This document shows, piece by piece, positions 6,425 to 63,200 of a stretch of DNA of 64,000 nt. The translations under genes and the position numbers were made by a program. How positions within the stretch are numbered: the stretch's first letter is position 1; the number at the start of each line of letters is the position of its first letter. The notes beneath the pieces are model-generated. The model did not search any database, was not told the DNA's origin, and saw nothing but the letters and a program-made list of their open reading frames with translations. The DNA comes from Streptosporangium soli (GTDB taxonomy: Bacteria > Actinomycetota > Actinomycetes > Streptosporangiales > Streptosporangiaceae): positions 213,580 through 277,579 of the forward strand of contig JAKNTW010000009.1 in assembly GCA_022213955.1 (NCBI GenBank), given 5' to 3'.

Positions 6425-6775
6425 TCCGGGGTTCTCCGACTCCGAGGAAAGTTTTATGACCAGATGATAGGTCCTTGAACGCTTACGCCAAAGGTAGGAG
6501 GCCGAACGTTGATCGGCTGTTGATCCTCCGTTGAACATGGGGGGACATGCTGAGACACATGAAAGGCGTGGCCCCGAGCCAAACGGGGGCGGCCATGCCT
6601 CCCTGATATTCCGGGGGCTCGCATCAACCGATGCGGGCCCCTTGTCGCGTGCCGTACAGCACGTTTATAGCGGGCTGCAGGCTGCCGTCAACAGTGTGTA
6701 AGCGGTGTGCAGGCGGCAGGGCCTATCAATGAGCCATCGCCCCGGCACTGGGGGAGTTTCCGAAGGAGAACCACG

Positions 6776-15903: not shown

Positions 15904-16151
15904 GGCGACACCGCGCTTGGGAGGCGCGATACCGCGCTTGGGAGGGTGGAGCGTCCGGGGTCGGTGGTCGCCCTGCCCTGGAGGGTGGTGCGTCCGGGGT
16001 CGGTGACGGTGGTTGCCCTGGTGTGGAGGGTTGTGCGTCCGGGGGTGGTCGTCGTGTTTTGGAGGGTGGTGCGTTCAGGGTCGGTGACGGTGGTCGCCTC
16101 AGCCTGGAGGGTGAGTTCGGGGAGGGCGCGGTGGCGGTCGGTGGCGGTCAT
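15900..16151 (-). other. junction-repeat mini-ORF (83 aa, Thr-rich 13-aa repeats ATTVTDPGRTTLQ) coupled between acyl-CoA ligase and epimerase
   Basis: ATG overlaps the acyl-CoA ligase stop (ATGA) and its TGA overlaps the epimerase GTG (GTGA). The repeats echo the ligase C-terminus RATVTR. Underlying DNA tandem repeats span 15905-16145. Confidence 0.3.
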
Positions 16152-18764: not shown

Positions 18765-18835
18765 CGCACCGCCGCCCCGGGCCAGGGCGGCAGCCGCTCG
18801 GCCGGGTACGGCTGTGCCTCGTGGTCCGCGATCAT
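18761..18835 (-). other. mini-ORF (24 aa) MIADHEAQPYPAERLPPWPGAAVR (repeat copy 3)
   Basis: ATGA overlap with the previous mini-ORF stop. Its own TGA overlaps the P450 ATG at 18764. Confidence 0.3.
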
Positions 18836-18999
18836 CGCACCGCCCTGGGCCGGGGCGGCAGCCGTACGGCCGGGTACGTGGCCGGGTGCGGCTGTGTCTC
18901 GTGGTCCGCGACCATTGCAACCGCCGCCCTGGGCCGGGCCGGTAGCCGTATGGCCGGGTACGTGATCGGGTGCGGCTGTGTCTCGTGGTTCGCGATCAT
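18832..18999 (-). other. mini-ORF (55 aa) MIANHETQPHPITYPAIRLPARPRAAVAMVADHETQPHPATYPAVRLPPRPRAVR (fused repeat copies 1+2)
   Basis: ATG overlaps the GT2 stop (ATGA). Its TGA overlaps the next mini-ORF ATG. Matches the tail of ORF 18832..19044. Confidence 0.3.
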
Positions 19000-19727
19000 C
19001 GCACGTCGATGACGTCGGGGCGGTAGTGGTGGTCGGCGTACCACGCGAGGGTGCCGACCAGGCCATAGGCGCGCAGCCGGCGCACGGAGCCGAAGACGAC
19101 GACGTCCCGCCGGGTGGCGTAGGCGGGGGTGAGCCGGCGGACGGCGTTGACCAGCGCGCGGTCCTCGTGCAGCTCCTCGATCGCGGTCCGGGGAAAGCCG
19201 CCCGCGCGCTCGTACAGGGAGGTGGTGATCGCCATGGTCGCACCGGGCATCATGACGTACGGCCCGCGATAGGCGGGATCGCGGTTGCCCGGCCGGAACC
19301 GGCCGAACAGCGCGGCCACCTCCACGACGAAGGGGATCAGCCGCCGCTCCCAGAACTTCAGCGGGAACTCGTCGGTCCGGGGCCGCAGTTGCCCGCCGAC
19401 CATCTCCAGCCCGTCGGCGAACCCCCGCCGGAGGTTGCGCACCCAGTCGTGGCGCGGCAGGCAGTCGGCGTCGGTCCTGGCCAGGTGGGTGGCCCCGGCC
19501 GCGATGGCGTGCCGCATGCCGGTGTCGGCAGCCGCGCCGGTGCCCTTGCGCGGCTCCCCGACCACCCGGACGCCGTGCCGCCGGGCGATGTCCGCCGTGC
19601 CGTCGGTGCTGTCGTTGTCCACCACCAGCAGCGTGAAGTCCTGGTCATCCTGTGCGGCGAGTGCGCGCAGCGTGCCCTCGATCCCGGCCGCCTCGTTGTA
19701 GGCGGGGACGATCACCCAGAGGTCCAT
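18996..19727 (-). CDS. family 2 glycosyltransferase
   Basis: ORF 18996..20120 trimmed to MDLWVIVPAYNEAAGIEGTLRAL...LLVVDNDSTDGT (GT-A fold, DxD). Its ATG overlaps the KAS III stop. Confidence 0.8.
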   Translation of the reverse strand: MDLWVIVPAYNEAAGIEGTLRALAAQDDQDFTLLVVDNDSTDGTADIARRHGVRVVGEPRKGTGAAADTGMRHAIAAGATHLARTDADCLPRHDWVRNLRRGFADGLEMVGGQLRPRTDEFPLKFWERRLIPFVVEVAALFGRFRPGNRDPAYRGPYVMMPGATMAITTSLYERAGGFPRTAIEELHEDRALVNAVRRLTPAYATRRDVVVFGSVRRLRAYGLVGTLAWYADHHYRPDVIDVR

Positions 19728-37423: not shown

Positions 37424-37765
37424 CCACGCCCGCGCTCGGGCGGCTTGCCATACCCGCCGCTTGTTGCGTGCCGTACCTGCCCGTACGGCAAGCCACCCCG
37501 GCGCCCCGCGCCGCCCGTGGTGCGGTCCGTCGGGTCACGCCGCTCCAGCAGCGGTGGCGAGCCGCCGTCACGGCGTGCCTTGACGTGGGTTCTTCGGTAC
37601 GTCCGAAGGGCTTGAACCTGCCGCCACGAGGGGTCGGGTGTCCGGGGCCGGGGTGTGGTGTGGGCCCCGGCCGGGCCGGTGGTGTCGGCCCGGCCGGGGT
37701 GTTCGGTGGCGGCCGGTGATGGTGTCGGGGAACGTCAGGGGGCGGTCACGGGGCTCAGGGGGCGG

Positions 37766-40492
37766 TTACGGGGCTCGGAGGTAGGCCACGCCGAAGGCGG
37801 AGTCGGCGGGGGTGCCCTCCGGGGAGTGGCAGTAGACGTCCACGGTCAGCTGCGGTGGGGCGCTGTAGGAGTTGAAAACGCCCAGGTGGCAGTACTGGCC
37901 GGGGGTGTTGGTGGTGACCTGGGCGCTGTCGATCGGCTTGCCGATGCCGGTGTGGACGACCCGGTACCACCCCTTCGCCAGCCGGGTGACTGTCGGGGAT
38001 CCGCCGTCGCTGCTGTAGGAGCGGCGTTGGTCGATCACCGGGCCGGCCGGGTCGCCGGTGGTCGTGACGTAGGCGGCGGGCGCCGACGGGTCGCGGTGAA
38101 GTCCCCGGCCCTGCACGTAGGAGAGCACCCAGGGGGAGTCGACGCGCCGCGCCGTGGATTCCCCGCTCACGGCGTAACAGCCGACGGCCACCTCCAGGGT
38201 GTCACCGGCGACGGTCGTGCCCTCCGGGTGACAGCGGGCCGGCCCGCCCGAGCCGTACGGCGTGACCTGCGGGTAGCCGCTGTCCTCGGTGAACGCGGCG
38301 CCTTTGAGGACGACCTTGTAACGGCCCGGACCCTCGTGGCGGACGTGGTTGACCTGGCCGGCGGAGTTGTAGGTGCCGTCGTTGCGCACGGGGGTGAGGC
38401 TGCCGGTTCCGCCGGGCGGGTTGTAGCGGACCGTGGCGTACGGCGTGTCGCCCGGGGCGGCCGGCGCGGCGAAGAACACGGTGAACCACCAGTCGATCGG
38501 TGCCCCGGTGTGGTCGAAGCACCGCACGCGGATCACCTCGTCCGGTACGGCGGGCTCCTGACCGGCCACCGCGCACGTCCGCCCCCGATAGGTCGTGCGA
38601 TACGCCGTCACGTGCGCCACTCCGGTCGCGGAGGCGATGTCGGGCAGCCGGACGGTGTACTCGCCGGTGCCCGTATGGGTCACCGTCGCCCGGTGTGCGG
38701 CGTTGGCGGGGTCACGCCGTCCGGTGGTCCACTGGAAGGTGGCGTCCAGCGCGGTCTCGGCGCCCAGCGGGGCGGTCGCCTTGTCCATGTAGGCGAAACC
38801 CCAGCGGGGAGTGGCCGACGCGGTGGGCGCGGCCGCCGCCACCATGGCGTCGATCAGCTCCGCGACGACGCGCTTGCCCTGCTCCTCGGTGAGTCCCGGC
38901 TCCGGGGCGCTCGGCGGCGGGCTGCCGGCGTCGGGGGAGACGCCGACCCGGAAGGTGATGTTCTCCCAGTCGTCCGAGCCGGTCAACGGCGTGCTGTCAG
39001 GCTCGGTGCCGCCCAGCAGGTTGACGGAGACCTCGCGGGTGGGATCGGGATCCGGGACGCCGGCGGAACTCCAGTTCCAGTCGAGGCCGCGCCTGGCGTC
39101 GCCGACGCGCAGGACGCGAGCCGGGTCCCGCCACGCCGCCGTCAGGCCGGTACTCGCCCCGATGCCCGCACTCTCCACGAGCCGCGTCATCTGGAGATCG
39201 TCCAGTTTCTCGCGCGAGTAGTCGATGGCGCTCACCGCCTCCGCCGTCTCCACCCAGGAGTCCTCGGCGGTGTCGCCGGGCATGTCGCGCAGGGCGGCCA
39301 GCCAGGCGCTGTAGTCGGGCAGGCCGGTGAGCTGGTACTGGTAGCTCAGGACGGACAAGTAGTTCGGCTTGTAGTTGGTGTTGTCGCCGCCGCCGTGCAG
39401 GAGACCGAGCGCGTGTCCCAGTTCGTGGACGAAGGTGCCGCTCTGCGTTCGGTCGGTGATCTCGTCCCAGGCTCCCAGGGACACGATGAAGTCGATCGCG
39501 TAGCCGTCCACGGGGGCGTAGCCGCTGCTGGTGGACTCGTCGTGCTTGTATCCCCAGAGGTTGTAGAAGAACAGGTTCTGCCGGTGCGGCGGGAAGTGGG
39601 CCGCCCGGTGCCGGTCGAAGCCGGTCCGCCCGTCCTCCCCCTGCTCGCGCAGTGGCCGCCGGCGCTCGGCGGGGGTGACCGGGATGGCGTCCGAGAGGTC
39701 GACCAGCAGTTGGATGCCGGGCTCGGGCCTGGGGCCGTACGGGCACTGTGCCGCCGCGTTGACCGGCGCGTTGTCGAACATGTGGCGCGCCTCGTCCATC
39801 GCGGTCGCCGACGGCCGGTCGGACGCGGTCCCGTCGTCGAGCCAGTCGATCTCGACGGCCGTCGTCTTCCGGCACGGGTCCGCGGCCCGGTCGGGGAGCC
39901 AGGTGTCGAGCGTGCCGTCCGCCCGCCGGATGCCGAAGAGTTCCACCCGGTCGGTCAGGCCGTCCCCGTCGGTGTCGGGATCCGGCCGGCCCTCGTTGGT
40001 GTTCCACGACTGGTCGGTGTTCTTGTAGAAGCGGTGCAGCGGTTCGGCGGGGTCCGGGGAGGCTCGGTCGTAGTACACGGCTCCGGTGTCACGGTCGGTG
40101 ACGCGCAGCGCCTGCAGGTTCCAGTTGTCCGCCGAGATATCGGGCTTGGTCGTCTCGTGGGTGAATGTGAAGCCGTCGAGCAGGTGCCTCGCCGGCACGC
40201 ACGGCGTCAGGTGGGTGTCCCAGGTGAAGGTGGCGTTCCGGGTGTCGCCCGTGCCTCCCCGGTGGAAGGGCTGGGGCGTGGCGTCGGGTGTGCCGTCGCC
40301 GTCCCCGTCCTCGAAGAGGAGGGTTCCGCCGCCGAAGGTGATCCTCTCGGTGGACGTGTCGTGCAGGCCGTCGTCGCCGGTGGTGACGGTGAACGTCACC
40401 CGGCACACCTCGCCGGCGGCGGCCCGCGCGGGACCGGCCGGAACGGCCGACACCCCCGCCACCGTGAGTGCCGCCAGGAGGACGAGGGCCAT
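37766..40492 (-). CDS. secreted zinc metalloprotease (HExxH), multidomain, ~900 aa
   Basis: Signal peptide. VHELGHALGLLHGG zinc site. Long C-terminal beta-rich region with repeated Cys-containing modules. An alternative upstream start exists at 40582. Confidence 0.8.
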   Translation of the reverse strand: MALVLLAALTVAGVSAVPAGPARAAAGEVCRVTFTVTTGDDGLHDTSTERITFGGGTLLFEDGDGDGTPDATPQPFHRGGTGDTRNATFTWDTHLTPCVPARHLLDGFTFTHETTKPDISADNWNLQALRVTDRDTGAVYYDRASPDPAEPLHRFYKNTDQSWNTNEGRPDPDTDGDGLTDRVELFGIRRADGTLDTWLPDRAADPCRKTTAVEIDWLDDGTASDRPSATAMDEARHMFDNAPVNAAAQCPYGPRPEPGIQLLVDLSDAIPVTPAERRRPLREQGEDGRTGFDRHRAAHFPPHRQNLFFYNLWGYKHDESTSSGYAPVDGYAIDFIVSLGAWDEITDRTQSGTFVHELGHALGLLHGGGDNTNYKPNYLSVLSYQYQLTGLPDYSAWLAALRDMPGDTAEDSWVETAEAVSAIDYSREKLDDLQMTRLVESAGIGASTGLTAAWRDPARVLRVGDARRGLDWNWSSAGVPDPDPTREVSVNLLGGTEPDSTPLTGSDDWENITFRVGVSPDAGSPPPSAPEPGLTEEQGKRVVAELIDAMVAAAAPTASATPRWGFAYMDKATAPLGAETALDATFQWTTGRRDPANAAHRATVTHTGTGEYTVRLPDIASATGVAHVTAYRTTYRGRTCAVAGQEPAVPDEVIRVRCFDHTGAPIDWWFTVFFAAPAAPGDTPYATVRYNPPGGTGSLTPVRNDGTYNSAGQVNHVRHEGPGRYKVVLKGAAFTEDSGYPQVTPYGSGGPARCHPEGTTVAGDTLEVAVGCYAVSGESTARRVDSPWVLSYVQGRGLHRDPSAPAAYVTTTGDPAGPVIDQRRSYSSDGGSPTVTRLAKGWYRVVHTGIGKPIDSAQVTTNTPGQYCHLGVFNSYSAPPQLTVDVYCHSPEGTPADSAFGVAYLRAP

Positions 40493-49308: not shown

Positions 49309-50646
49309 ATGAGTTCACAGGTCGCGCCCCCGGCGGAACGGGACACGCTCGCCACCGACCTTGACGATCACGCCCTCGAACCGGTCCCGACGAACCGCCG
49401 CAAGTCGCTGCTCCAGATGATCATTGTGCAGATCGGCTGGAACATCAGCGTCAGCAGCTTCCTGGTCGGCGGCGTGGTGGGCGGCGGCAGTTCCTTCGGG
49501 GCGGGCATCGCCGCCATCCTCGTCGGCAACCTGGTGCTGGTCGTGGTCTCGACCTTGGTCGGGCTGGTGGGCTACCGGACCGGGCTGTCGAGTTATCTGG
49601 CCGCCCGGGCGGTCTTCGGGCGGCACGGCGCGGTCGTCGTCTCGCTGCTGCTCGGCCTGCTCGCCATGGGGTTCATCGGGGTACTGATGGACACCTGGGG
49701 CGGTGCGGTGAACAAGCTGCTCCCGGCGATCCCCTCGTGGGTGTTCGTGCTGGCCTTCGCCCTGGCCATCACCTCCACGGCGATCTTCGGAATCAAGGGG
49801 CTCGCCAGGTTCTCCGCGATCGCCGTGCCCATCGAGATCGGCATCGCGCTGGTCGCCCTCTTCAAGATCGGCGGTATGGAGGGCGGCTTCGCCGAAGTCA
49901 TCGCACACACCCCCGCCGTGCCGATCGGGTTCGGCGCCGCCGTCGGAGCGGTGATCGCGACCTGGGTCACCGGAGCGGCGCTGGTCGGCGACGTGACCAG
50001 ATACGCCAGCCGCCCGCGCGATGTGATCATCTCCAGCTTCTGCGGCTTCGTCGCCGGCGCGGGCGTCTTCGAGACCATCTCCATGGTCTCCGCGATGAAG
50101 GTCGCCAACAGCAACTTCGTGCTGGTCATGCAGGGACTCGGGCTGCTCGCCCCGGCCGCGGTGATGCTGGTCCTCGCACTGTGGAACACCGCGGACAACA
50201 ACCTCTACTCCGCGTCGCTGGCCTTCACCAACGCCTCCAACACACTGGGCGCGCGGATCGGCAAGCCGGTGTGGACGATCGTCTCCATCGTGATCGCCGT
50301 GCTCGTGGCCTTCGCCGGGCTGGCAGACTCCTTCCTCGTCTTCCTGAACATCGTCGCGCTCGTCGCACCGCCGTTCGCCGGCGTCCTCATCGCGCACTTC
50401 TGGGTGCTGGCCCGCCACAGCTCGGGCACGGAACTCCTCCGCTCCGCGCCTGCCGTACGGGTCGAGGCCCTGGTCGCGTGGGCGCTGGCGGCGGTGCTCT
50501 CGAAGGTGACCGACGTGCTGCTGACCGACGCGATCGAGGGACTGGTGTACGGCTTCGTGTGCTACGCGCTGCTCGGCTGGGTGCTGAAGAGGATCAAACC
50601 GATGGGCGCGCCGGAGCCGGCCGTACCGGAAAGGGATGAGTCATGA
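49309..50646 (+). CDS. NCS1 family nucleobase/hydantoin-type cation symporter
   Basis: Strong RBS gaggagagg before ATG 49309. Twelve TM helices. NCS1 N-terminal signature (NRRKSLLQMIIVQIGWNIS). Confidence 0.8.
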   Translation: MSSQVAPPAERDTLATDLDDHALEPVPTNRRKSLLQMIIVQIGWNISVSSFLVGGVVGGGSSFGAGIAAILVGNLVLVVVSTLVGLVGYRTGLSSYLAARAVFGRHGAVVVSLLLGLLAMGFIGVLMDTWGGAVNKLLPAIPSWVFVLAFALAITSTAIFGIKGLARFSAIAVPIEIGIALVALFKIGGMEGGFAEVIAHTPAVPIGFGAAVGAVIATWVTGAALVGDVTRYASRPRDVIISSFCGFVAGAGVFETISMVSAMKVANSNFVLVMQGLGLLAPAAVMLVLALWNTADNNLYSASLAFTNASNTLGARIGKPVWTIVSIVIAVLVAFAGLADSFLVFLNIVALVAPPFAGVLIAHFWVLARHSSGTELLRSAPAVRVEALVAWALAAVLSKVTDVLLTDAIEGLVYGFVCYALLGWVLKRIKPMGAPEPAVPERDES

Positions 50647-51656
50647 GATTCGGCCTTGGAGTGCCGACGGGGACCGAAGGATTGATGTACCCGGTCCCCT
50701 ACGCCGACATCGGCCAGGCCGTACGGCTGGCGGTCGAGGCGGAGCGGCTGGGCTTCGACTCGGTGTGGGCCAACGATCACGTGTCGACCCAGGCGTACGT
50801 GCGGGAGGAGTTCGAGACTCCGCCGCGCTTCTACGACCCGTTCGGTTATCTCAGCTATGTCGCGGCGATCACCAGCAGGATCCGGCTGGCCACGGCGATC
50901 ATGGTGCTGCCGTTCCGCAACCCGGTGGTGGCCGCCAAGCAGGCCGCCACGCTCGACCAGCTCTCCGGCGGCCGGGCCGTGCTCGGGGTGGGCATCGGCG
51001 CCTACCGCGAGGAGTACGAGGCGATGAACCCCGGGCGTCCGCTGCACCGGGGCGAGCACGCGGCGGAGGCCATCCAGGCGTTGCAGGCGCTCTTCACCCG
51101 GCGGCGCGCGAGTTTCCACGGACGCTGGGTCGACTTCCACGACGTGGAGTCGTACCCCAAGCCGATGCAGCCGACGTTGCCGATCCTGTCGGGCGGCAAC
51201 GCGCCGGGGTCGCGCACCCGGGCCGCGCTGTACGCGGACGGCTGGCTGCCCGCCTGCCTCACCCCCGGGGAGGTGGCCGACGGCATCGCCGCGATCGGCG
51301 ACCGGGCCACCGCCGCGCGCGGCGGCCTGCCCCCGGGATTCGAGGTTGCTTTGCAGGTGGCCGTGTGCGTCGCGCCCACCATGGAAGAGGCGTGGCGCAG
51401 GTTCCGGGCCTCGCAGATCCACAACCACCTCGTCTCGCTGTCCGGCTCGACGCTGAAGGACCAGGGTGTGGAGGATCTGGCCCGCCGCAACCTCATCGGC
51501 ACCCCGGAGAGCGTGGCCGAACAGGTGGCGGCCTACCGGGCGGCCGGCGTCGACACCATGGCCGGGCTGCTGTTCGCGGCCAACACGGTGGAGGAGACGG
51601 TCGACGCGATGGCCGAGTTCAGCGAGACGATCATTGGCAGGGAGACGATCGGATGA
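50643..51656 (+). CDS. LLM-class F420/flavin-dependent oxidoreductase
   Basis: ATGA overlap with the permease stop. LLM TIM-barrel signature (WANDHVS, GGRAVLGVGIG). Confidence 0.85.
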   Translation: MRFGLGVPTGTEGLMYPVPYADIGQAVRLAVEAERLGFDSVWANDHVSTQAYVREEFETPPRFYDPFGYLSYVAAITSRIRLATAIMVLPFRNPVVAAKQAATLDQLSGGRAVLGVGIGAYREEYEAMNPGRPLHRGEHAAEAIQALQALFTRRRASFHGRWVDFHDVESYPKPMQPTLPILSGGNAPGSRTRAALYADGWLPACLTPGEVADGIAAIGDRATAARGGLPPGFEVALQVAVCVAPTMEEAWRRFRASQIHNHLVSLSGSTLKDQGVEDLARRNLIGTPESVAEQVAAYRAAGVDTMAGLLFAANTVEETVDAMAEFSETIIGRETIG

Positions 51657-51730
51657 CAGCGGGTCTGCGGGGTCCGGCCGGGTGGCGGCTGGGCGGCGAG
51701 ACGATCAGCGACGGGGAGACGATCGGATGA
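51653..51730 (+). other. junction-duplication mini-ORF (25 aa) MTAGLRGPAGWRLGGETISDGETIG
   Basis: ATG overlaps the LLM stop and its TGA overlaps the M24 ATG. Its C-terminus ETIG copies the LLM C-terminus (gagacgatcggatgac duplicated). Confidence 0.25.
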
Positions 51731-52935
51731 CCGTGGATCTGCGGGAACTCGCCGGGCAACGGCTGGGACGGCTGCGCGAGGCGTTGGCCGGGGCGCCCTT
51801 CGACGCCGTGATCCTCACCACGCCGGAGAGCATCCTCTACGCCACGGGGTACCGTTCCGTGGCCGGGCCGTTGTTCCGCGCGCACCGGATGGCCGCGCTG
51901 GTGACCGGGGACGACTGCTGGCTCGTCTGCCCCGCCGCCGACACGGCCCCGGCCGCCGACGCCGGGATGCCGGAGGACCGGCTGGTGCCCTTCGGCCGGT
52001 TCTACTTCGAGTCGGCCCTGGGCTCCCCGCTCACCGACATGTCCGACCGGCACCCGGACCTCCCGGCCGCGCTGGCGACCGCCGTCGGATTCGCCGGGCG
52101 AGGGCTGCGCTACGGCATCGAAGGACTCGCGGCCGATCCGCTTCTCGGCACGGCTGCGGGCTCGTCCGCGGGCTCGCCGGGCCGTACGTCCGCCGAGGGC
52201 TCGGCCGGTGCGGCCGTGGACGCGACGCAGTGGATGACCGCGTTGCGCGGTCCGAAGCTGCCCGGTGAGGTGGCGCTGCTCAGGCACGCGGCCCGGCTCG
52301 CCGAGGCGGGCGTGAACGCCGCGCTCGACGCCGCCGGACCGGGGATCACCGAGCAGGAACTGGCCGGCGTCGTCGCCGCGACCATGGTCGCCGAAGGTGG
52401 GGAGCCGCGGTTCGTGGTGGCCACGACCGGCCCGCGGTCGGCGCTCGCCGACGCCCACCCGACAGGCAGGACGTGGCAGCCCGGCGAACTGGCCAGGTTC
52501 GACGTGGGATGCCTCTACGGCGGCTACTACTCCGACATCGGCCGCACCGCCGTACTGGGCGGGCCCGACCACCGGCAGACCAGCCGGTACGCCGCGATCC
52601 TCGACGGTCTGGACGAGCAGATCGCGCTGGCCAAGCCGGGGGTCACCGCCGAGGAGCTGTTCGAGATCGCGATGGAGACCGTGCGGCGGGGCGGGATCGC
52701 CCCCTACCGGCGGCAGCACTGCGGGCACGGCATCGGGCTGTCCATCTACGAGCAGCCGATCATCGCGCCGGGGACCGCGACGGCGCTCGAAGAGGGCATG
52801 ACATTCTGCTTCGAGACGCCGTACTACGAGATCGGATGGGGCGGGATGATGGTCGAGGACACCCTGGTGGTGACCGCCGACGGCGTCGATTTGTTCACCC
52901 ACTCCCCGCGCGCCCTGCCGGTGGTGCCCGCATGA
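51727..52935 (+). CDS. M24 family metallohydrolase (creatinase/Xaa-Pro aminopeptidase/ectoine-hydrolase-like)
   Basis: Pita-bread fold metal ligands (DVGCLYGGYYSDIGRT, HGIGLSIYEQP, FCFE). ORF 51466..52935 trimmed to MTVDLREL. Confidence 0.85.
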   Translation: MTVDLRELAGQRLGRLREALAGAPFDAVILTTPESILYATGYRSVAGPLFRAHRMAALVTGDDCWLVCPAADTAPAADAGMPEDRLVPFGRFYFESALGSPLTDMSDRHPDLPAALATAVGFAGRGLRYGIEGLAADPLLGTAAGSSAGSPGRTSAEGSAGAAVDATQWMTALRGPKLPGEVALLRHAARLAEAGVNAALDAAGPGITEQELAGVVAATMVAEGGEPRFVVATTGPRSALADAHPTGRTWQPGELARFDVGCLYGGYYSDIGRTAVLGGPDHRQTSRYAAILDGLDEQIALAKPGVTAEELFEIAMETVRRGGIAPYRRQHCGHGIGLSIYEQPIIAPGTATALEEGMTFCFETPYYEIGWGGMMVEDTLVVTADGVDLFTHSPRALPVVPA

Positions 52936-56127: not shown

Positions 56128-58956
56128 GTGCTTGTTGCCGTGCTCGCGCACTTCGTGGCGGCCGTGGTCGCGCCGGTCGCGGTGCGGCGGCTGGGAGCAC
56201 GGGCGTTCTGGCTGATCGCGGCGGTCCCCGCGGCCGTGACCGGGTGGGCGGTGGTGACCCGCGGGTCGCGGACCGAGGTGTTCTCCTGGGTTCCCGGCTA
56301 CCAGCTCGACCTGGCCTTCCGGATGGACGCGCTCGCGCTGCTGATGGTGGTCGTGGTCGCGGGCGTGGGCGCGCTGGTCCTCGTCTACTGCGGCGGCTAC
56401 TTCAACTCCGGCGACGTCGGACTACCGGGTTTCGCCGGGATGTTCGTCGCGTTCGCGGGGGCGATGCTCGGCCTGGTCCTGGCCGACGACCTCGTCCTGC
56501 TCTACGTCTTCTGGGAACTGACCACCGTCTTCTCCTACCTGCTGATCGGCTTTCACGCGGAGGAGCGCAACAGCAGGCGCGCGGCGATGACCGCGATCGT
56601 GGTCACCACCTTCGGCGGGCTGGCCATGCTGGTCGGACTGATCATGATCGGGCTGGCCGCCGGCACCTTCCGGATCTCCGAGATCATCGCGAGGCCGCCC
56701 TCGGGCGCCACGGTGACCGCCGGGCTGGTGCTCGTGCTGGTGGGCGCGTTGTCGAAGTCGGCGCTGATCCCCTTCCACTTCTGGCTGCCGGGTGCGATGG
56801 CGGCTCCCACCCCGGTCAGCGCCTATCTGCACGCGGCGGCGATGGTGAAGGCCGGCGTCTACCTGGTGGCCAGGCTCTCGCCGGCTTTCGCCGACGTCTC
56901 CCCCTGGCGGACGATCACCGTGGTGTTCGGGCTGGCCACCATGATCATCGGGGGCTGGCGGGCCATGCGGCAGTACGACCTGAAGCTGCTGCTCGCCTTC
57001 GGCACCGTCAGCCAGCTCGGTTTCCTCGTCGTCATGGTCGGCGTGGGCACCTGGGCCGCCGCGCTGGCCGGCGTCTACACGCTGCTCACGCACGCCGCCT
57101 TCAAGGCCGCGTCGTTCATGGTCGTGGGCATCATCGACCACGGCACCGGCACCCGCGACCTGCGCAAACTGAGCGGGCTGCGGTCGGCCGCGCCGGTCAC
57201 CTGTGTGTGCGGGGTGATCGCCGCCGCGTCGATGGCGGGGCTGCCGCCACTCGGCGGATTCGTCAGCAAGGAGGCCGACTTCGCGGCCTTCACCGACGAT
57301 CCGGTCGTGCTCGCCGTACTGGTGCTGGGGTCGATCCTCACCGTCGCCTACAGCGCCCGCTTCGTGTGGGGGGCGTTCGCCGTCAAACCGGGCAGGGAGC
57401 CGACGGTGATGCACGGGCCGGGGGTGTCCCTGTCGGCGCCGGTGGTCGTGCTGACGGTGGCGACGGTGCTGCTCGGCCTGGCGGCGCCGGTGTTCGACCC
57501 GATCGTGGCCAGATACGCGAACGCCTATCCGCCGGGCCCCGACGACGAGCACCTCGCCCTGTGGCACGGCTTCACCCTGCCGCTGGGACTGTCGGCGCTG
57601 GTCCTCCTGGCGGGCGCGGCGCTCTTCGTCGCCCGGGGCGCGGTCTCGCGGGTCCAGGCGGTCCTGCACCCGCACCTCGACGCCGAACGGACCTACCGGC
57701 TGATCATGCACGGCCTGGATCGCGCCGCCGACCAGGCCACCCGCTTCACCCAGCGCGGCTCGCTGCCCGTCTACCTGCGCTTCATCCTGTTCGCGCTGCT
57801 CATGATGCCCGGCAGCGCGCTGCTGGCCGGGCTGCCCTGGGGCGGTGCCGTACGGCTGTGGGACGTGCCGGCCGAGGCCGTGGTCGCGGGCCTGATCTGC
57901 GTCGCCGCCCTCGCCACCGTGAACCAGACGTGGCGGCTCGCCGCGGTCATGTGCGCGGGCGTGACCGGGGTGGGCACGGCCACCATGTTCGTCCTGCACG
58001 GGGCCCCCGACCTGGGGCTGACCCAGTTCCTCACCGAGACGGTGACCCTGGTGGCCTTCGTCCTGGTGCTGCGCAGGCTGCCGCCGAAGTTCGTCGAACG
58101 GCAGGTCGAGGGCATCCGCCGGCTCAACGCGGTGTTCGCCGCCGCCGTGGGCCTGCTGGTGGCGGGCATGGCCTACGTCGCCGTCAACGCCCGTACGGCA
58201 CCGCCCGCCTCCGCAGGCTACCCGGAGGCCGCCATCGAGGCCGGCGGCCACAACATCGTCAACATCGGCCTGGTGGACCTGCGCGCCTGGGACACCATGG
58301 GAGAGAGCTCGGTGCTGCTCATCGCGGCGGCCGGGGTGATCGGCCTGATCTACCTGCGGCGCACGCCGACCATGCCGCGCGCGGGGGAGAGCTCGGGCGA
58401 GGTGTGGGCGCGGCCGGGCGTCCCCTCCTTCGAGGAGCCGGAGGCCGCCCGCCCGGCCGCGACCTGGCTGCGGGGCAGCGAGACGCTGTCCGCCGAACGG
58501 CGGTCGATCGTCTTCGAGGTGACCGCCTGGACGGTCTTCCATCCGATGCTGGTCCTCTCGCTGTTCCTGCTGTTCAGCGGGCACGGCACGCCGGGCGGCG
58601 GATTCGCGGCGGGACTGGTCGCGGGGCTCGCGCTGACCATGCGCTACCTGGCCGGGGGCCGCTACGAACTGGCGGACGCGCTGCCGCTCGGGCCGGGAGT
58701 GTGCCAGGGCGCCGGGCTGACGGTCATCACGGTCACCGGGCTGACCGGGCTGCTGATCTCCGGCGAGGTGTTCAGGGAGACGGTGCTCGACTGGCGCCTG
58801 CCGGTGCTCGGCGAGATCCACTTCCCCACCTCGACGATCTTCGACATCGGCGTCTACCTGGTGGTCATCGGCGTCGTCCTCGACTTCCTGCGCGCGATGG
58901 GCGGCGAGCTGGACCGGCAGGTCGAGGAGGAGGGCGAGGAGGTGATCACCGCGTGA
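56128..58956 (+). CDS. mrpA: Na+(K+)/H+ antiporter subunit A (MrpA/MnhA with fused MrpB-like C-terminal domain)
   Basis: GTG start chosen at 56128 (VLVAVLAHF...). Complex-I NuoL-like helices (WLPGAMAAPTPVSAYLHAAAMVKAG). C-terminal MrpB-like module. Confidence 0.85.
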   Translation: MLVAVLAHFVAAVVAPVAVRRLGARAFWLIAAVPAAVTGWAVVTRGSRTEVFSWVPGYQLDLAFRMDALALLMVVVVAGVGALVLVYCGGYFNSGDVGLPGFAGMFVAFAGAMLGLVLADDLVLLYVFWELTTVFSYLLIGFHAEERNSRRAAMTAIVVTTFGGLAMLVGLIMIGLAAGTFRISEIIARPPSGATVTAGLVLVLVGALSKSALIPFHFWLPGAMAAPTPVSAYLHAAAMVKAGVYLVARLSPAFADVSPWRTITVVFGLATMIIGGWRAMRQYDLKLLLAFGTVSQLGFLVVMVGVGTWAAALAGVYTLLTHAAFKAASFMVVGIIDHGTGTRDLRKLSGLRSAAPVTCVCGVIAAASMAGLPPLGGFVSKEADFAAFTDDPVVLAVLVLGSILTVAYSARFVWGAFAVKPGREPTVMHGPGVSLSAPVVVLTVATVLLGLAAPVFDPIVARYANAYPPGPDDEHLALWHGFTLPLGLSALVLLAGAALFVARGAVSRVQAVLHPHLDAERTYRLIMHGLDRAADQATRFTQRGSLPVYLRFILFALLMMPGSALLAGLPWGGAVRLWDVPAEAVVAGLICVAALATVNQTWRLAAVMCAGVTGVGTATMFVLHGAPDLGLTQFLTETVTLVAFVLVLRRLPPKFVERQVEGIRRLNAVFAAAVGLLVAGMAYVAVNARTAPPASAGYPEAAIEAGGHNIVNIGLVDLRAWDTMGESSVLLIAAAGVIGLIYLRRTPTMPRAGESSGEVWARPGVPSFEEPEAARPAATWLRGSETLSAERRSIVFEVTAWTVFHPMLVLSLFLLFSGHGTPGGGFAAGLVAGLALTMRYLAGGRYELADALPLGPGVCQGAGLTVITVTGLTGLLISGEVFRETVLDWRLPVLGEIHFPTSTIFDIGVYLVVIGVVLDFLRAMGGELDRQVEEEGEEVITA

Positions 58957-59540
58957 CCGGGCCCAACGTGATCCTGTTGGCCACGGTGACCGTGCTGGTG
59001 GCGACCGGGGTGTTCCTGATGCTGGAACGCAGCCTCACCAGGATCATCGTGGGCGTGATCCTGCTCGGCAACGGGGTGAACCTGTTCATCCTGGCCGCCG
59101 GGGGCCCGACGGGGAGGCCGCCCCTCCTCGGGTTCTCGTCCGTGTCCGCGATCAGTGACCCGCTGCCCCAGATCATGATCCTCACCGCGATCGTGATCAC
59201 CCTGGCGCTCGTCGCGTTCCTGCTGGCCCTGGCCCATCGCAGCCGGCAGCTCACCGGCGACGACGAGGTACGCGACGACGAGGAGGACCGCAGGGTCATC
59301 GCCAGGGTCGAGCGCGAACTGGCCAGGGATCGCCTGCGCGAGCAGGCCGAGCGGGTCCGCAGGATCCAGGCCGAGGAGGGCCGCCGCGCGGGCTGGCGGG
59401 CGTGGCGCGGGCTGCGCAGCACGGCACGCGGCGAGCGCAGGGACTTCCGCCGCCGGATGCGCGAGGAATGGGAACGCCAGATGGCCGCCGACGACCCGGA
59501 ACGGGCGATGGACACCACGATGGGCGAGGACGTGCAGTGA
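58953..59540 (+). CDS. mrpC: Na+/H+ antiporter subunit C (MrpC/NuoK-like) with ~80-aa charged C-terminal extension
   Basis: GTGA overlap with mrpA. NuoK-like three-TM core VILLATVTVLVATGVFLML...LGNGVNLFIL. Its stop is duplicated downstream. Confidence 0.8.
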   Translation: MTGPNVILLATVTVLVATGVFLMLERSLTRIIVGVILLGNGVNLFILAAGGPTGRPPLLGFSSVSAISDPLPQIMILTAIVITLALVAFLLALAHRSRQLTGDDEVRDDEEDRRVIARVERELARDRLREQAERVRRIQAEEGRRAGWRAWRGLRSTARGERRDFRRRMREEWERQMAADDPERAMDTTMGEDVQ

Positions 59541-59673
59541 ACGACGTCCGGGGGGTCGACGCCGTTCGTGGGCGGCGCGGTGTGGTGCGCGGCGGCCGAG
59601 AGGTCTGCATGAGGACGGGCGAGGGTGTGGGCGGCGGCCGGGCGATCGACACGGCGATGGGCGGGGGCGTGCG
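59541..59673. repeat. duplicated mrpC/mrpD junction (spacer)
   Basis: cgatgggcgaggacgtgcagtgaacgacgtc (true mrpC end) recurs as cgatgggcgggggcgtgcggtgaacaacgtc immediately before mrpD. An in-frame mini-ORF ...TAMGGGVR* is coupled to mrpD by GTGA. Read positions in this stretch may be off by 1 relative to the ORF track. Confidence 0.7.
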
Positions 59674-61218
59674 GTGAACAACGTCCTCGTGCCGTTGCCC
59701 GTCGTGCTGCCGTTGCTCGCGGCCGGGGTACGGCTCGCCCTCGGGCCCCGGATCACCCGGGTCCAGCGTGGCATCTCCGTCGCTGTCCTGCTGTCGATCG
59801 TGGTCATCGCCGCCGTGCTCGTCTACCAGACCGACAGGTACGGCCCGCAGACCATGGACCCGGGCGGCTGGCCCGCCCCGATCGGCGTCATGCTGGTCGT
59901 CGACCGTCTGTCGGCGCTGATCCTGCTGGTGTCGAGCGTGATCGTCCTCGCTGTGATCGTCTACGCCATCGGGCAGGGAGCCGCCGACAACGACGAGGTC
60001 ACCCCGCTGGCGATCTTCCACCCGGCCTATCTCATCCTGGTCGCCGGAGTCGCCGACACCTTCATGGCGGGCGACCTGTTCAACCTCTATGTCGGCTTCG
60101 AGATCCTGCTGACCGCGAGCTACGTCCTGATCACCATCGGGGGCACGGGCGCGCGGGTGCGCGCGGGGATGACCTACATCGTGGTCAGCCTGCTCTCCTC
60201 GGTGGTCTTCCTGCTGGCCATCGGGCTCTGCTACGCCGCGACCGGCACCCTCACCATGGCCCAGCTCGCCGTACGGCTCGACGCGTTGCCCGACGATGTT
60301 CGCCTGGTGCTCCAGCTGGCGCTGCTCGTCGGGTTCGGCATCAAGGCGGCCGTCTTCCCGTTGTCGGCGTGGCTGCCCGACAGTTATCCGACCACGCCCG
60401 CGCCGATCACCGCGCTCTTCGCGGGGCTGCTGACCAAGGTCGGCGTCTACGCGATGATCCGTACCCAGACGCTGCTCTTCCCCGGCTCGAACCTGACCAC
60501 GTTGCTGCTGGTCGCGGCGGCCCTCACCATGCTCGTCGGGATACTCGGCGCGGTCGCGCAGACCGACATCAAGCGGCTGCTGTCGTTCACGCTGGTCAGT
60601 CACATCGGCTTCATGGTCTTCGGCATCGGCCTCGCCTCGCGGGCCGGGCTGGCCGGGGCGATCTTCTACGTCGCCCACCACATCACCGTGCAGACCACGC
60701 TCTTCCTGGTCACCGGCCTGGTGGAACGGCGTGGCGGCAGCACCTCGATCGAACGGCTGGGCGGGCTGGCCCGGTTGTCGCCGCTGCTGGCGGTGCTGTT
60801 CTTCATCCCGGCGATGAACCTGGCGGGGATACCGCCGCTGTCCGGGTTCCTGGGCAAGCTCGGCCTGCTGCGCGCCGGGGTCGAGGCGGGCACCCCGCTG
60901 GCGTACACGCTGGTCGGGGTGTCGGTGCTGACCAGCCTGCTGACCCTGTACGCCGTCTGCTGGGTGTGGAACCGCGCCTTCTGGGGCGACCGGAGCAAGG
61001 TGCCCGAACCCGGTCAGATCATCCGGACGCGCGAAGGGCTCGGCGGGACGGCCATCGTGGCCGCCGCCTACCCGGGATCGATGGCGGGCACCACCCTGGC
61101 GCTGGTCGGGTTCGCCACCGCCTTCACCGTGGTCGCCGGACCACTGGTGACCTACACCGACCGGGCCGCCGCCGAACTCCTCGAACGCACCCCCTACGTG
61201 ACGGCGGTGCTGCCGTGA
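59674..61218 (+). CDS. mrpD: Na+/H+ antiporter subunit D (MrpD/NuoN-like)
   Basis: 514 aa, 14 TM helices. Conserved GFGIKAAVFPLSAWLPD and HIGF motifs. Confidence 0.9.
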   Translation: MNNVLVPLPVVLPLLAAGVRLALGPRITRVQRGISVAVLLSIVVIAAVLVYQTDRYGPQTMDPGGWPAPIGVMLVVDRLSALILLVSSVIVLAVIVYAIGQGAADNDEVTPLAIFHPAYLILVAGVADTFMAGDLFNLYVGFEILLTASYVLITIGGTGARVRAGMTYIVVSLLSSVVFLLAIGLCYAATGTLTMAQLAVRLDALPDDVRLVLQLALLVGFGIKAAVFPLSAWLPDSYPTTPAPITALFAGLLTKVGVYAMIRTQTLLFPGSNLTTLLLVAAALTMLVGILGAVAQTDIKRLLSFTLVSHIGFMVFGIGLASRAGLAGAIFYVAHHITVQTTLFLVTGLVERRGGSTSIERLGGLARLSPLLAVLFFIPAMNLAGIPPLSGFLGKLGLLRAGVEAGTPLAYTLVGVSVLTSLLTLYAVCWVWNRAFWGDRSKVPEPGQIIRTREGLGGTAIVAAAYPGSMAGTTLALVGFATAFTVVAGPLVTYTDRAAAELLERTPYVTAVLP

Positions 61219-61354
61219 GAGCGCCGGCAGTTCATCGGCCGGACGGGTCAGCGGGCCGCCGGGCGGGCGGTGGTGTCGCCATGATGGCCGGGCAGTCCAC
61301 CGGCCTGGCGTCAGGGGTCGCCGGTGCGCCGTGCGGAGTGACGGCGGTGCTGCC
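61219..61354. repeat. duplicated mrpD/mrpE junction with 25-aa mini-ORF MMAGQSTGLASGVAGAPCGVTAVLP (61281..61358)
   Basis: gtgacggcggtgctgccgtga (the mrpD end VTAVLP*) is repeated at 61333-61358. The mini-ORF ends VTAVLP* with its TGA overlapping the mrpE GTG. Confidence 0.7.
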
Positions 61355-61858
61355 GTGAGGCCCGCGCCGATCATCGGTCTGGCGGCGATCTGGGTGCTGA
61401 TGTGGGGCAACCTGTCCGTCGCCAACGTGCTGTCCGGGGTGCTGGTCGCCGTGCTCATCACCTGGCTGACCCGGCTGCCGAGGGTCGGCGGCGACGCGCG
61501 GATCGCGCCGTGGGGGTGCGTGCGGCTGCTGGGATGGTTCCTGGCCGACATGGTGATCTCCAGTTCGCGCGTCGCCTGGCAGGCCGTACGGCCCGGCCCG
61601 CCGCCCGTCTGCGCGGTGATCGCGGTGACCCTGCGGAGCCGTAGCGACCTCACCATGACGGTCACGGCGCTGACCCTCTCCGCGGTGCCCGGCAGCCTCG
61701 TGGTGGAGGTCAGGAGGTCGGCGGGCATCCTCTACCTGCACGTACTCGGGGTGGACCGCGAGCACGACCTGGAGCACACCCGCCTGGGCGTGCTGGCTCT
61801 GGAGGCCCGCGTGATCCGTGCGATCGGGAGCGGTGAGGAGAGAGGGAGGCTCACGTGA
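61355..61858 (+). CDS. mrpE: Na+/H+ antiporter subunit E (MrpE)
   Basis: GTG start (VRPAPIIGLAAIWVLMWGNLSVANVLSG...). About 167 aa with two or three TM helices, consistent with the MrpE family. Confidence 0.75.
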   Translation: MRPAPIIGLAAIWVLMWGNLSVANVLSGVLVAVLITWLTRLPRVGGDARIAPWGCVRLLGWFLADMVISSSRVAWQAVRPGPPPVCAVIAVTLRSRSDLTMTVTALTLSAVPGSLVVEVRRSAGILYLHVLGVDREHDLEHTRLGVLALEARVIRAIGSGEERGRLT

Positions 61859-61893
61859 TCGGGCGCGGCGAGGAGAGAGGGAGGCTCACGTGA
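61855..61893 (+). other. junction-duplication mini-ORF (12 aa) VIGRGEERGRLT
   Basis: gaggagagagggaggctcacgtga occurs twice (61838-61861 and 61870-61893). The mini-ORF has GTGA overlaps at both ends. Confidence 0.25.
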
Positions 61894-62153
61894 CCGTCGT
61901 CGTGCTCATCGCCGGCGCAATGCTCGGCGTGGCGGCGACCCTGACGCTGATCCGGCTGATCGCCGGGCCGTCCCGCCTGGACAGGGCCGTGGCGTTCGAC
62001 GTGCTCATCGCCATCACCGTGGTGGGGATCGGGATGGAGGCGGCCTACAACCGGCACACCGCCACGCTGCCGATCCTGATGGTCGTATCGATCATCGGGT
62101 TCGTCGGCTCGGTGGCCGTGGCGCGGTTCGCGGCGCGGAGGAACAGTGAGTGA
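61890..62153 (+). CDS. mrpF: Na+/H+ antiporter subunit F (MrpF)
   Basis: GTG start with RBS gaggagagagggagg. 87 aa, three TM helices (VTVVVLIAGAMLGVAATLTLIRLIAGPSRLDRAVAFDVL). Confidence 0.75.
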   Translation: MTVVVLIAGAMLGVAATLTLIRLIAGPSRLDRAVAFDVLIAITVVGIGMEAAYNRHTATLPILMVVSIIGFVGSVAVARFAARRNSE

Positions 62154-62475
62154 CGTCGTCGTCGGGACGCTGCTGATGGTCGGAGGCGTGTTCTCGCTCA
62201 CCGCCGGGATCGGCCTGCTGCGCTTCCCCGACCTGCTCTCGCGCCTGCACACCGGGGCCAAACCGCAGCTCATCGGGCTGGTGGCGACGCTGGTGGCGAT
62301 CGGGGTGAGCACGGGCGCGGCTCTCGACTACGGCATCCTCGCCCTGATCGCCATATTTCAGATCATGACGGCCCCGGTCGCCGCCCACATGGTCGGCCGC
62401 GCCGCCTACCGCGCCGGCAAGGTCCGCGAGGACCTCCTCATCACCGACGAACTCAGCCGCGACCTGGCCGACTGA
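62146..62475 (+). CDS. mrpG: Na+/H+ antiporter subunit G (MrpG)
   Basis: 8-nt overlap with mrpF. MnhG signature LHTGAKPQLIGL. 109 aa. Confidence 0.8.
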   Translation: MSDVVVGTLLMVGGVFSLTAGIGLLRFPDLLSRLHTGAKPQLIGLVATLVAIGVSTGAALDYGILALIAIFQIMTAPVAAHMVGRAAYRAGKVREDLLITDELSRDLAD

Positions 62476-62600: not shown

Positions 62601-63200
62601 TTACACGGCCAGGAAGTACCACAACTGCTGGCCGGCGTACTCGTTGCAGGTCCACTGCTGGATGTTGGCGCCGTTGTGGGTCCAGCCATGGTCGACGTCC
62701 AGGCACTTGCCGCTGTTCCTGTTCTCCAGGAAGTAGAAGGTGTTCCACCACGCGTCGGTGTAGGCGTACTTCCAGCGCCACATCTGCTGTGGAACGTTGA
62801 CGCAGGTCCACTGCTGGACGTTGGCGCCGTCGTGGGTCAGCGCACGATCGACGTCCAGGCACTTGCCGCTGTGCTGGGCGCGGATGAAGAACCACTCGCT
62901 GCCGGGCGTCACCCGTAGGTACTGCCAACGCTGCTGGGGCACGTTGACGCAGGCCCACTGCTTCACGTTCGCGCCGTCGTGGGTGTAGGCGTTGTCGACA
63001 TCCACGCACGTTTCCGGCGCCGGGAAACGCCGGTGGATCTCGAACAGGTACGACCAGGTATCCGCCGTCTGCCCACTCCTCGCCACGGCGCCGGCGGCCG
63101 GCGGAGCCGGCGACCACACGGGCACGGCGAGAGACAGGAGCATGACCACGGTCAGCAGCCCACGGCGACCACTCCATCGATGATTCAAGTCATTGCGCAC
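62601..63200 (-). CDS. secreted ricin-B (beta-trefoil) lectin domain protein
   Basis: Signal peptide. Three QxW repeats (GANVKQWACVNVPQQRWQY, GANVQQWTCVNVPQQMWRW, GANIQQWTCNEYAGQQLWYF). Confidence 0.8.
   Translation of the reverse strand: MRNDLNHRWSGRRGLLTVVMLLSLAVPVWSPAPPAAGAVARSGQTADTWSYLFEIHRRFPAPETCVDVDNAYTHDGANVKQWACVNVPQQRWQYLRVTPGSEWFFIRAQHSGKCLDVDRALTHDGANVQQWTCVNVPQQMWRWKYAYTDAWWNTFYFLENRNSGKCLDVDHGWTHNGANIQQWTCNEYAGQQLWYFLAV

Follow-up and report, generated by a model that had tools for sequence, protein, structure and literature searches.

Duplicated stop/start junctions and bridging open reading frames in the mrp operon of Streptosporangium soli

Three successive gene junctions in the mrp operon of Streptosporangium soli (mrpC/mrpD, mrpD/mrpE, and mrpE/mrpF) each occur twice, and the resulting spacers of 34 to 139 nucleotides (nt) contain short open reading frames (ORFs) with a GTGA overlap at both ends. 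These "relay ORFs" probably keep neighboring genes translationally linked. The explanation that we favor, with moderate confidence, is that they arose by short, nontargeted tandem duplications that survived only in the frame that preserves coupling. All positions refer to the window, the 64,000-nt stretch of the genome that was analyzed.

The operon encodes an Mrp (Mnh/Pha) cation/proton antiporter, with its genes in the order A/B, C, D, E, F, G, as in relatives. All genes lie on the forward strand. The first, mrpA, is a fused A/B gene (942 amino acids [aa], 56128 to 58956) whose frame is open to 58956 from a presumed GTG start at 56128; its relatives are 936 to 970 aa long, and their products match Proton_antipo_M, MbhD, MbhE, and MnhB. 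It is followed by mrpC (195 aa, 58953 to 59540; Pfam PF00420, E = 7e-20), which is an exact match to NCBI protein MCG5215782.1, and by mrpD (514 aa, 59674 to 61218), which carries PF00361 and is 100% identical to an NCBI protein entitled [quoted passage not shown] The remaining genes are mrpE (167 aa, 61355 to 61858; Pfam MNHE, E = 7e-33, match from residue 7; MCG5215785.1), mrpF (87 aa, 61890 to 62153; Pfam MrpF_PhaF; MCG5215786.1), and mrpG (62146 to 62475; Pfam PhaG_MnhG_YufB). The boundaries used for MrpC, MrpD, MrpE, and MrpF agree with the NCBI proteins, and the translated N terminus of MrpD (VNNVLVPLPVVLP) is the same as that in the actinobacterial locus L081. Neither the mrpA/mrpC junction, a single GTGA overlap (58953 to 58956), nor the mrpF/mrpG junction, an overlap of 8 nt, is duplicated.

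At the C/D junction, positions 59502 to 59549 recur at 59639 to 59686 (41 of 48 nt). The initial annotation had noted that the mrpC stop context recurs, and it does, although at a spacing of 137 nt rather than 130 nt. In the first copy, mrpC terminates (GTGA, 59537 to 59540); in the second, as had also been claimed, lies the GTG of mrpD at 59674, in agreement with the NCBI protein. Between them runs a relay ORF of 46 aa (59537 to 59677, forward strand; VNDV to RAIDTAMGGGVR), whose GTG overlaps the mrpC stop and whose TGA overlaps the mrpD start. Its beginning resembles that of MrpD (VNNV), and its end resembles that of MrpC (RAMDTTMGEDVQ). It contains a 42-nt in-frame repeat (59585 to 59668) and is annotated by NCBI as hypothetical protein MCG5215783.1.

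The D/E copies (61198 to 61219 and 61338 to 61359) are identical over all 22 nt and are spaced 140 nt apart, and mrpD ends in the first of them (GTGA, 61215 to 61218). This recurrence was recognized initially, but at 61333 to 61358. The relay ORF is 47 aa long (61215 to 61358, forward strand; VRAPA to GVTAVLP) and overlaps both the mrpD stop and the mrpE start. Its last six residues are those of the MrpD C terminus, and its exact sequence was not found in the protein collection. A 25-aa ORF beginning with MMAG had been described here; it exists and is coupled to mrpE, but it is the 3' portion, in the same frame, of the 47-aa ORF, which has an internal ATGA at 61281.

At the E/F junction, the copies are head to tail (61822 to 61856 and 61857 to 61891; 33 of 35 nt), forming a tandem repeat with a period of 35 nt and a TRF score of 130. 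The first copy holds the end of mrpE (GTGA, 61855 to 61858), the breakpoint shows a 2-nt "GA" microhomology, and GGGAGG is situated 8 nt upstream of the GTG in both copies. As originally described, this forward-strand duplication (two 35-nt units, 61822 to 61893) contains a 12-aa ORF (61855 to 61893; VIGRGEERGRLT). Each of the three overlaps has thus been replaced by a spacer and an ORF coupled to the genes on either side, as was proposed from the first reading of the sequence; all three of the small ORFs then listed exist, but two of them, now 46 and 47 aa long, had been delimited too short.

These repeats are not chance similarities, because a census of local direct repeats (spacing, 12 to 400 nt; score, at least 18) returned 21 segments for the window, compared with none for five Markov-1 randomizations, and because the alignment scores of the junction contexts (22 to 32.5) exceed those of all 406 cross-locus background pairs (maximum, 17). 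Errors of assembly or polishing might leave identical copies, such as those at D/E, but they are extremely improbable as the source: the other copies diverge (41/48, 33/35, and about 80%), unlike the products of collapse or expansion, and the same architecture is present in independent assemblies of other taxa. The extent of duplication differs among junctions. The contention that all three were duplicated is correct in that each occurs twice, but at C/D and D/E duplication is demonstrable only over 48 and 22 nt. When the C/D and D/E interiors were compared with their flanks, similarity was not significant (P = 0.2 to 0.98), except in one test (P of about 0.012) that reflects weak similarity between the D/E interior and mrpD (61009 to 61116). 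On the alignments, a simple tandem-duplication history is established only for E/F and for two other loci in the window (51622 to 51772 and 18728 to 19004; see below). Rfam scans gave no match, and scans of the spacers for promoters and terminators gave no signals. An interpretation of the spacers as structured RNA was rejected, with RNA folding z-scores of -0.5 to 1.2.

The spacings of the mrp repeats (137, 140, and 35 nt) are all 2 mod 3, as are those of 74, 80, and 71 nt elsewhere in the window; the sole spacing that is in frame, 84 nt, falls within a relay ORF. A spacing of 2 mod 3 places the start codon of the first copy in frame with the stop codon of the second, and the chains are unbroken at all six bridged junctions of the window, for which the chance is roughly (1/3)^6. 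Across the window census, periods that are not multiples of 3 are situated at junctions and are 2 mod 3, with one exception in a convergent intergenic region, a tally that leaves out offsets of 68, 164, and 235 nt (the last two being sums) within a four-copy cluster. Where the period is divisible by 3, the repeat belongs to a coding region, a relay ORF, or a noncoding array (3014 to 3480). The earlier suggestion that these duplications were tolerated through preservation of coupling fits the frame evidence. The relay ORFs have also retained a coding-like GC3 (0.85).

According to the explanation favored here, the 4-nt overlaps of mrpC/D, D/E, and E/F would have been spanned by short tandem duplications, with lengths from 35 nt up to about 140 nt. 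Both genes would stay intact, with the upstream one ending in the first copy and the downstream one beginning in the second, and a length of 2 mod 3 alone would turn the spacer into a relay ORF, carrying the first residues of the downstream gene at its start and the last residues of the upstream gene at its end. A ribosome terminating on the upstream gene would reinitiate on the relay ORF, presumably translating it, and would then stop at the TGA overlapping the real start codon and reinitiate there. Termination-reinitiation coupling requires overlaps or very short distances (PMC10666635, PMC6728339); by such relays, the coupling of antiporter subunits, which we infer to be the selected property, would outlive a gap of 34 to 139 nt. 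The other frames would be harmful: one would add an N-terminal extension to the downstream membrane protein, and in the remaining frame ribosomes would pass the downstream start site out of frame. Because constraint on relay ORFs would be limited to their frame and their two ends, their interiors would decay and would grow by in-frame repeats, the probable history of the C/D and D/E interiors.

Nor is the process confined to mrp, in line with the broader process originally envisaged: the same 64 kb contain two further duplicated junctions and one more relay ORF. On the forward strand, an ATGA junction is duplicated at 51622 to 51772 (period, 74 nt; about 80% identity) between genes for a luciferase-like monooxygenase (50640 to 51656) and an M24 peptidase (51727 to 52935), yielding a relay ORF of 25 aa (51653 to 51730). 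On the reverse strand, the junction between GT2 glycosyltransferase and P450 genes is present in four copies (18728 to 19004), with ATG codons at 18999, 18915, 18835, and 18764, copy spacings of 84 nt, in frame, and of 80 and 71 nt, each 2 mod 3, and two relay ORFs in series (18999 to 18832, 55 aa; 18835 to 18761, 23 aa). Also on the reverse strand, a relay ORF of 83 aa (15900 to 16151) extends from an ATGA at the upstream stop to a GTGA at the downstream start between genes for an AMP-binding enzyme and an epimerase; it contains in-frame repeats of 21, 39, and 81 nt and shows no recognizable junction copy.

When loci from other actinobacteria (1.58 Mb) were put through the same junction scan, only one true case emerged; these loci had all been selected for their mrp operons and so do not form a random genomic background. 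Among the other hits of the repeat scan, L099 is a CRISPR array, and those in L001 and L018 (the latter repeated by the hit L044) fall on the strand opposite to mrp; all were discarded as false positives. Tandem arrays number 9.4 per 100 kb in the window and 2.3 per 100 kb in the other, mrp-centered loci. This difference, the "GA" microhomology at the E/F breakpoint, and the position of 5 of about 10 local-repeat loci at gene junctions, which make up only about 1% of the window, could suggest that nonhomologous end joining or microhomology-mediated repair or slippage prefers stop/start overlaps in this genome. Such targeting seems quite unlikely. The same enrichment is predicted if intragenic frame-breaking duplications are selected against and if constrained junction copies stay recognizable for longer; moreover, the breakpoints have no motif in common, and the frame rule indicates selection, not mutation. 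Nothing, then, shows the mechanism aimed at stop/start overlaps that had been put forward initially, and untargeted duplication with a selective filter fits equally well.

Comparison with relatives indicates that 4-nt overlaps are ancestral, as the initial annotation supposed: loci L081 to L086 carry single GTGA or ATGA junctions, and relatives whose MrpD is 81 to 83% identical show one NTGA overlap per junction at C/D, D/E, and E/F. In each duplicate, the part that is conserved lies just upstream of the start codon and is nearly invariant across genera, with 30 of 30 nt identical between the window and the orthologous locus L082 at C/D (including the mrpC 3' end) and 14 of 15 nt identical between the window and L086 at D/E. 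The closest relative compared at the DNA level has an MrpD 83% identical, and a scan of GTDB genomes provided relatives at 68% identity or less only. In the nearest relative (P0002; MrpD, 87% identical), the D/E spacing, derived from gene coordinates alone, is 110 nt, again 2 mod 3.

A total of 468 mrp junctions, from 166 other actinobacterial loci and the window (167 sequences), were surveyed by an approach anchored on homology. A generic search for ORFs coupled at both ends was swamped by antisense shadow ORFs and the genuine MrpF gene, and the same causes made a generic NTGA...NTGA frame test too noisy. Direct overlaps account for about 90% of junctions at C/D (141 of 157) and at E/F (141 of 154). 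Spacers of at least 19 nt whose downstream gene lies in a different frame from the overlapping start are bridged in 21 of 21 cases (representing roughly 15 independent events when related loci are grouped by judgment) by one or two ORFs overlapping the stop and the start; unbridged spacers reach 11 nt at most. In other genomes, most of the ORFs that form such bridges lack junction similarity, as assessed by in-register comparisons only, because at spacings below 52 nt the two contexts physically overlap and their scores are spurious. One locus, L141, has the same 35-nt element twice, at C/D and at E/F.

Some of these features would also be expected of neutral debris, that is, of real duplications followed by independent downstream initiation, in which case the 2-mod-3 spacings would reflect chance or the removal of harmful frames. 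In each second copy, a G-rich, Shine-Dalgarno-like motif still precedes the start codon, and the downstream genes could initiate by themselves; likewise, the frame bias could come from the avoidance of harmful frames, not from selection for coupling. An open frame is easily obtained at 71% GC (the chance for 46 codons is about 0.4), the peptides are rich in Gly and Arg and unconserved between taxa, and most bridging ORFs elsewhere lack junction similarity. Neutrality is nevertheless an unlikely account: all 21 of the long out-of-frame mrp spacers are bridged and none is naked, and the start codons of first copies and the stop codons of second copies have been kept even where the interior has decayed.

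The closest known parallel to this architecture is the mycobacterial interspersed repetitive unit (MIRU), reported by Supply et al. in 1997 as described in PMC12548453 and PMC3184786. MIRUs are 40 to 100 bp long, lie between operon genes, and contain an ORF whose ends overlap the flanking stop and start codons (-4 spacing) (PMC12548453, PMC3184786); these ORFs are thought to couple genes by termination-reinitiation, avoiding polar effects (PMC12548453). The spacers examined here are similarly short, lie between presumably cotranscribed genes, and contain an ORF overlapping both neighbors, and the senX3-regX3 MIRU unit of 77 bp (PMC9392950) is 2 mod 3, like the units here. Insertion of a MIRU-like mobile element at NTGA sites would accord with the entry of MIRUs at start codons with a -4-coupled ORF (PMC12548453, PMC3184786), with the L141 element, and with C/D and D/E interiors that are otherwise unexplained, but it is highly improbable. 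In blastn comparisons within the 64-kb window, each spacer matches its own flanks only, whereas MIRUs are dispersed and share a consensus; the ends of the relay ORFs copy local genes; and the mrp flanks are duplicated over 48, 22, and 35 nt (22 to 74 nt across the window), whereas the repeat at a MIRU insertion site is only a tetranucleotide. The host, too, is a Streptosporangium and not a Mycobacterium. Because no consensus is common to them, the window spacers are not MIRU elements, although they appear to work in a MIRU-like manner.

Two other systems bear comparison. The locus-specific variable-number tandem repeats (VNTR/ETR type) at operon junctions of Mycobacterium tuberculosis, of which VNTR3239 (rnc-fpg; PMC2734929) is one, are likewise local tandem repeats that fill a stop-to-start gap in an actinobacterial host. 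Head-to-tail copies derived from their own locus are clear at E/F, 51622 to 51772, and 18728 to 19004, and at C/D and D/E the junction-proximal part alone is recognizable. However, the M. tuberculosis units of 55 and 79 bp are 1 mod 3, and no relay ORF figures in the account of them in PMC2734929. What defines a VNTR, moreover, is polymorphism in copy number. Termination-reinitiation at ATGA or TGATG overlaps also underlies an engineered form, the bicistronic design (PMC6728339, PMC10666635, PMC12548453), in which, as would apply to relay ORFs with their NTGA overlaps at both ends, a short ORF brings ribosomes to the next start. Here, in contrast, the leader ORF is natural, derives from a duplicated junction, lies within an operon, and is sometimes one of two in series.

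An operon may thus shed its compact 4-nt overlaps and yet keep translational coupling, with the duplicated junction turning into a relay ORF. The explanation favored here predicts that insertions at NTGA overlaps will have lengths of 2 mod 3 and that long spacers in operons encoding complexes will always be bridged; the second of these predictions held without exception among the 167 mrp sequences. MCG5215783.1 and other small "hypothetical proteins" of its kind are then likely by-products, not genes. A more speculative and rather doubtful extension is that a raised rate of junction duplication in this lineage keeps making relay ORFs and is a possible source of MIRU-like dispersed elements, of which the 35-nt unit at two junctions of L141 would, given that origin, be an example; in that case, any insertion tolerated at a 4-nt gene overlap would be expected to obey 2 mod 3 as a general rule. 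Duplication of a gene junction would, in any event, offer a simple local origin for MIRU-type architecture.

Three consecutive junctions of the mrp (Na+/H+ antiporter) operon are each present twice, and repeat analysis recovered all three of the repeats reported in the initial annotation. On the plus strand, the C/D junction at 59502-59549 recurs at 59639-59686 (41/48 nt, spacing 137), the D/E junction at 61198-61219 recurs at 61338-61359 (22/22 nt, spacing 140), and the E/F copies at 61822-61856 and 61857-61891 (33/35 nt) lie head-to-tail. The E/F duplication is clean, with GTGA regenerated by a 2-nt GA microhomology. A census of local direct repeats returned 21 segments in the window, as opposed to 0 in five Markov-1 randomisations. 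The boundaries of the operon's genes, all on the plus strand, agree exactly with NCBI proteins, and C, E, F, and G are backed by Pfam: mrpA/B (about 56128-58956), mrpC (58953-59540), mrpD (59674-61218), mrpE (61355-61858), mrpF (61890-62153), and mrpG (62146-62475). The A/C junction is an ordinary GTGA overlap, and F and G overlap by 8 nt. The NCBI entry [quoted passage not shown] matches the window's MrpD at 100% identity, and one protein of the operon is additionally recorded as S. soli. MrpC bears a strongly charged (Arg/Glu/Asp-rich) C-terminal extension of ~85 aa (59250-59540); its length of 195 aa is kept in the closest relatives (comparison loci L081-L086), and in other actinobacteria the tail contains in-frame tandem repeats, such as the 21-nt units of L068.

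When an NTGA overlap undergoes a duplication of length p, the start in copy 1 (with the upstream stop) is in frame with the stop in copy 2 (with the downstream start) only if p = 2 mod 3, and the mrp spacings of 137, 140, and 35 are all 2 mod 3. Each spacer is accordingly spanned by a relay ORF overlapping the upstream stop and the downstream start, at 59537-59677 (C/D, 46 aa), 61215-61358 (D/E, 47 aa), and 61855-61893 (E/F, 12 aa), all on the plus strand. The first residues of each resemble those of the downstream gene (VNDV/VNNV, VRAPA/VRPAP, and VI/VT, respectively), and the last resemble those of the upstream gene (RAIDTAMGGGVR versus RAMDTTMGEDVQ at C/D, VTAVLP at D/E, and GEERGRLT at E/F, each preceding the stop). 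GC3 stays at 0.85 in the relay ORFs. The C/D ORF is a 46-aa hypothetical protein in NCBI (MCG5215783.1/WP_238498254.1) and a singleton cluster in a collection of 15 billion proteins; the 47-aa D/E sequence is absent from the collection searched, and NCBI accession numbering has no slot for the D/E or E/F ORF. The spacers have no match in Rfam, contain neither promoter nor terminator signals, and show nothing unusual in RNA folding; a structured-RNA role was rejected.

The proposal that these junctions were ancestrally 4-nt overlaps is borne out by relatives with MrpD 81 to 83% identical (Spongiactinospora L081, Logan contigs L082-84, and Thermocatellispora L085/86), whose DNA has a single GTGA/ATGA at C/D and E/F. 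At D/E, L082-L086 have a direct GTGA overlap, and L081 has instead a 7-aa bridging ORF with a spacing of 20. In the window, copy 1 matches the end of the orthologous upstream gene, and copy 2 runs into the orthologous downstream start. A tblastn-anchored survey of 468 mrp junctions in 167 sequences found direct -4 or -1 overlaps at 141/157 C/D and 141/154 E/F junctions, and most D/E junctions are likewise in the direct-overlap frame. That the D/E copy is perfect over 22 nt fits with both copies being strongly constrained; a 15-nt stretch there is 14/15 identical to Thermocatellispora, and the equivalent C/D stretch is 30/30 identical to L082. The D/E spacing is 110 in the nearest relative, P0002 (known by gene coordinates, MrpD 87% identical), and 20 in L081, both 2 mod 3, so the D/E gap may be older than the other two. 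The C/D and D/E spacer interiors have no significant similarity to their flanks. The C/D spacer holds an in-frame internal 42-nt repeat, which suggests growth through in-frame expansion; its 59564-59595 segment matches the 5' end of an epimerase gene (15843-15874, minus strand; 32 nt, 87.5%, blastn E = 1e-5), a similarity that could be due to chance in GC-rich sequence or to templated filler. The D/E spacer (61278-61296) contains an ATGA and then TGGCCGGGC, which resembles the true Spongiactinospora mrpE start gccATGAAGATGGCCGGGC (L081, 7558-7580); this may be either coincidence or the remnant of a previous, older junction.

Junction duplication is not confined to mrp, as the initial annotation had anticipated: three further junctions in the window are bridged, two with recognizable copies. 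The ATGA junction of a luciferase-like monooxygenase and an M24 peptidase is duplicated with period 74 (relay ORF, 25 aa), and a minus-strand GT2 glycosyltransferase/P450 junction is present in four copies (spacings 84, 80, and 71), yielding relay ORFs of 55 and 23 aa in series. At the third, which has no recognizable junction copy, an 83-aa ORF with in-frame internal repeats begins at the ATGA where an AMP-binding enzyme gene stops and ends at the GTGA where an epimerase gene starts. With offsets 68, 164, and 235 inside the four-copy cluster set aside, periods in the window that are not multiples of 3 are all 2 mod 3 and located at junctions, with the single exception of a 20-nt repeat between convergent genes; multiple-of-3 periods fall within coding regions, relay ORFs, or a non-coding array at 3014-3480. 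This exception corresponds to short tandem repeats of 20 to 23 nt at 37646-37776, between convergent genes ending at 37423 and 37766. The large imperfect array at 3014-3480 (units of 102, 90, and 36 nt, 75 to 90% identity) has no convincing coding frame and occupies the space between two convergent genes, one ending at 2751 and the other large and regulator-like (3470-6538, minus strand). A single minus-strand ORF (62601-63200) contains repeats of 147 and 156 nt that keep its frame (62646-62984), consistent with a protein made of repeated domains of ~50 aa.

Scanning for duplicated junctions found five sites in the 64-kb window versus one true case, L141, in 166 other actinobacterial loci (1.58 Mb). 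The density of tandem arrays with periods of at least 25 is 9.4 per 100 kb for the window versus 2.3 for the other loci, where most arrays close to mrp junctions consist of in-frame repeats inside protein tails. Bridged mrp junctions amount to 3/3 in the window versus 18/465 elsewhere. At 29 surveyed junctions, the downstream gene and the overlapping start are in different frames; one or two ORFs that overlap both stop and start bridge 21 of these, representing about 15 independent events by our own grouping of related loci. The remainder are chiefly 6-nt spacers or longer direct overlaps (-8 and -17), with an assembly variant in one case (L085). All long spacers in the mrp survey are bridged; the longest without a bridge measure 5 to 11 nt. 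In a comparison of junction contexts, recognizable copies were limited to the window and the unit repeat of L141.

This distant metagenomic actinobacterium, L141, carries one 35-nt ATGA-to-ATGA element at both C/D (5954-5989, once) and E/F (8177-8247, twice), encoding MSGQRAAKADRA and MSCERGAKADRA, each followed by a stop, and it looks like a dispersed intercistronic unit of the mycobacterial interspersed repetitive unit (MIRU) type. G/A-rich spacers related to this element occur in L072 and L130. MIRUs are reported to insert at start codons, carry a -4-coupled ORF, and have tetranucleotide direct repeats (PMC12548453, PMC3184786); that of senX3-regX3 is 77 bp (PMC9392950), 2 mod 3 like the mrp spacings. 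Unlike MIRUs, the window spacers have duplicated ends of 22 to 74 nt and, within the 64 kb, match only their own flanks; they thus appear MIRU-like in function but not members of a family of that kind.

The finding of the initial annotation is real and its interpretation largely correct. For termination-reinitiation coupling, neighboring genes must overlap or lie very close together (PMC10666635, PMC6728339). We favor untargeted duplication combined with a filter: short tandem duplications would arise across stop/start overlaps without targeting, and would survive where termination-reinitiation coupling is kept.
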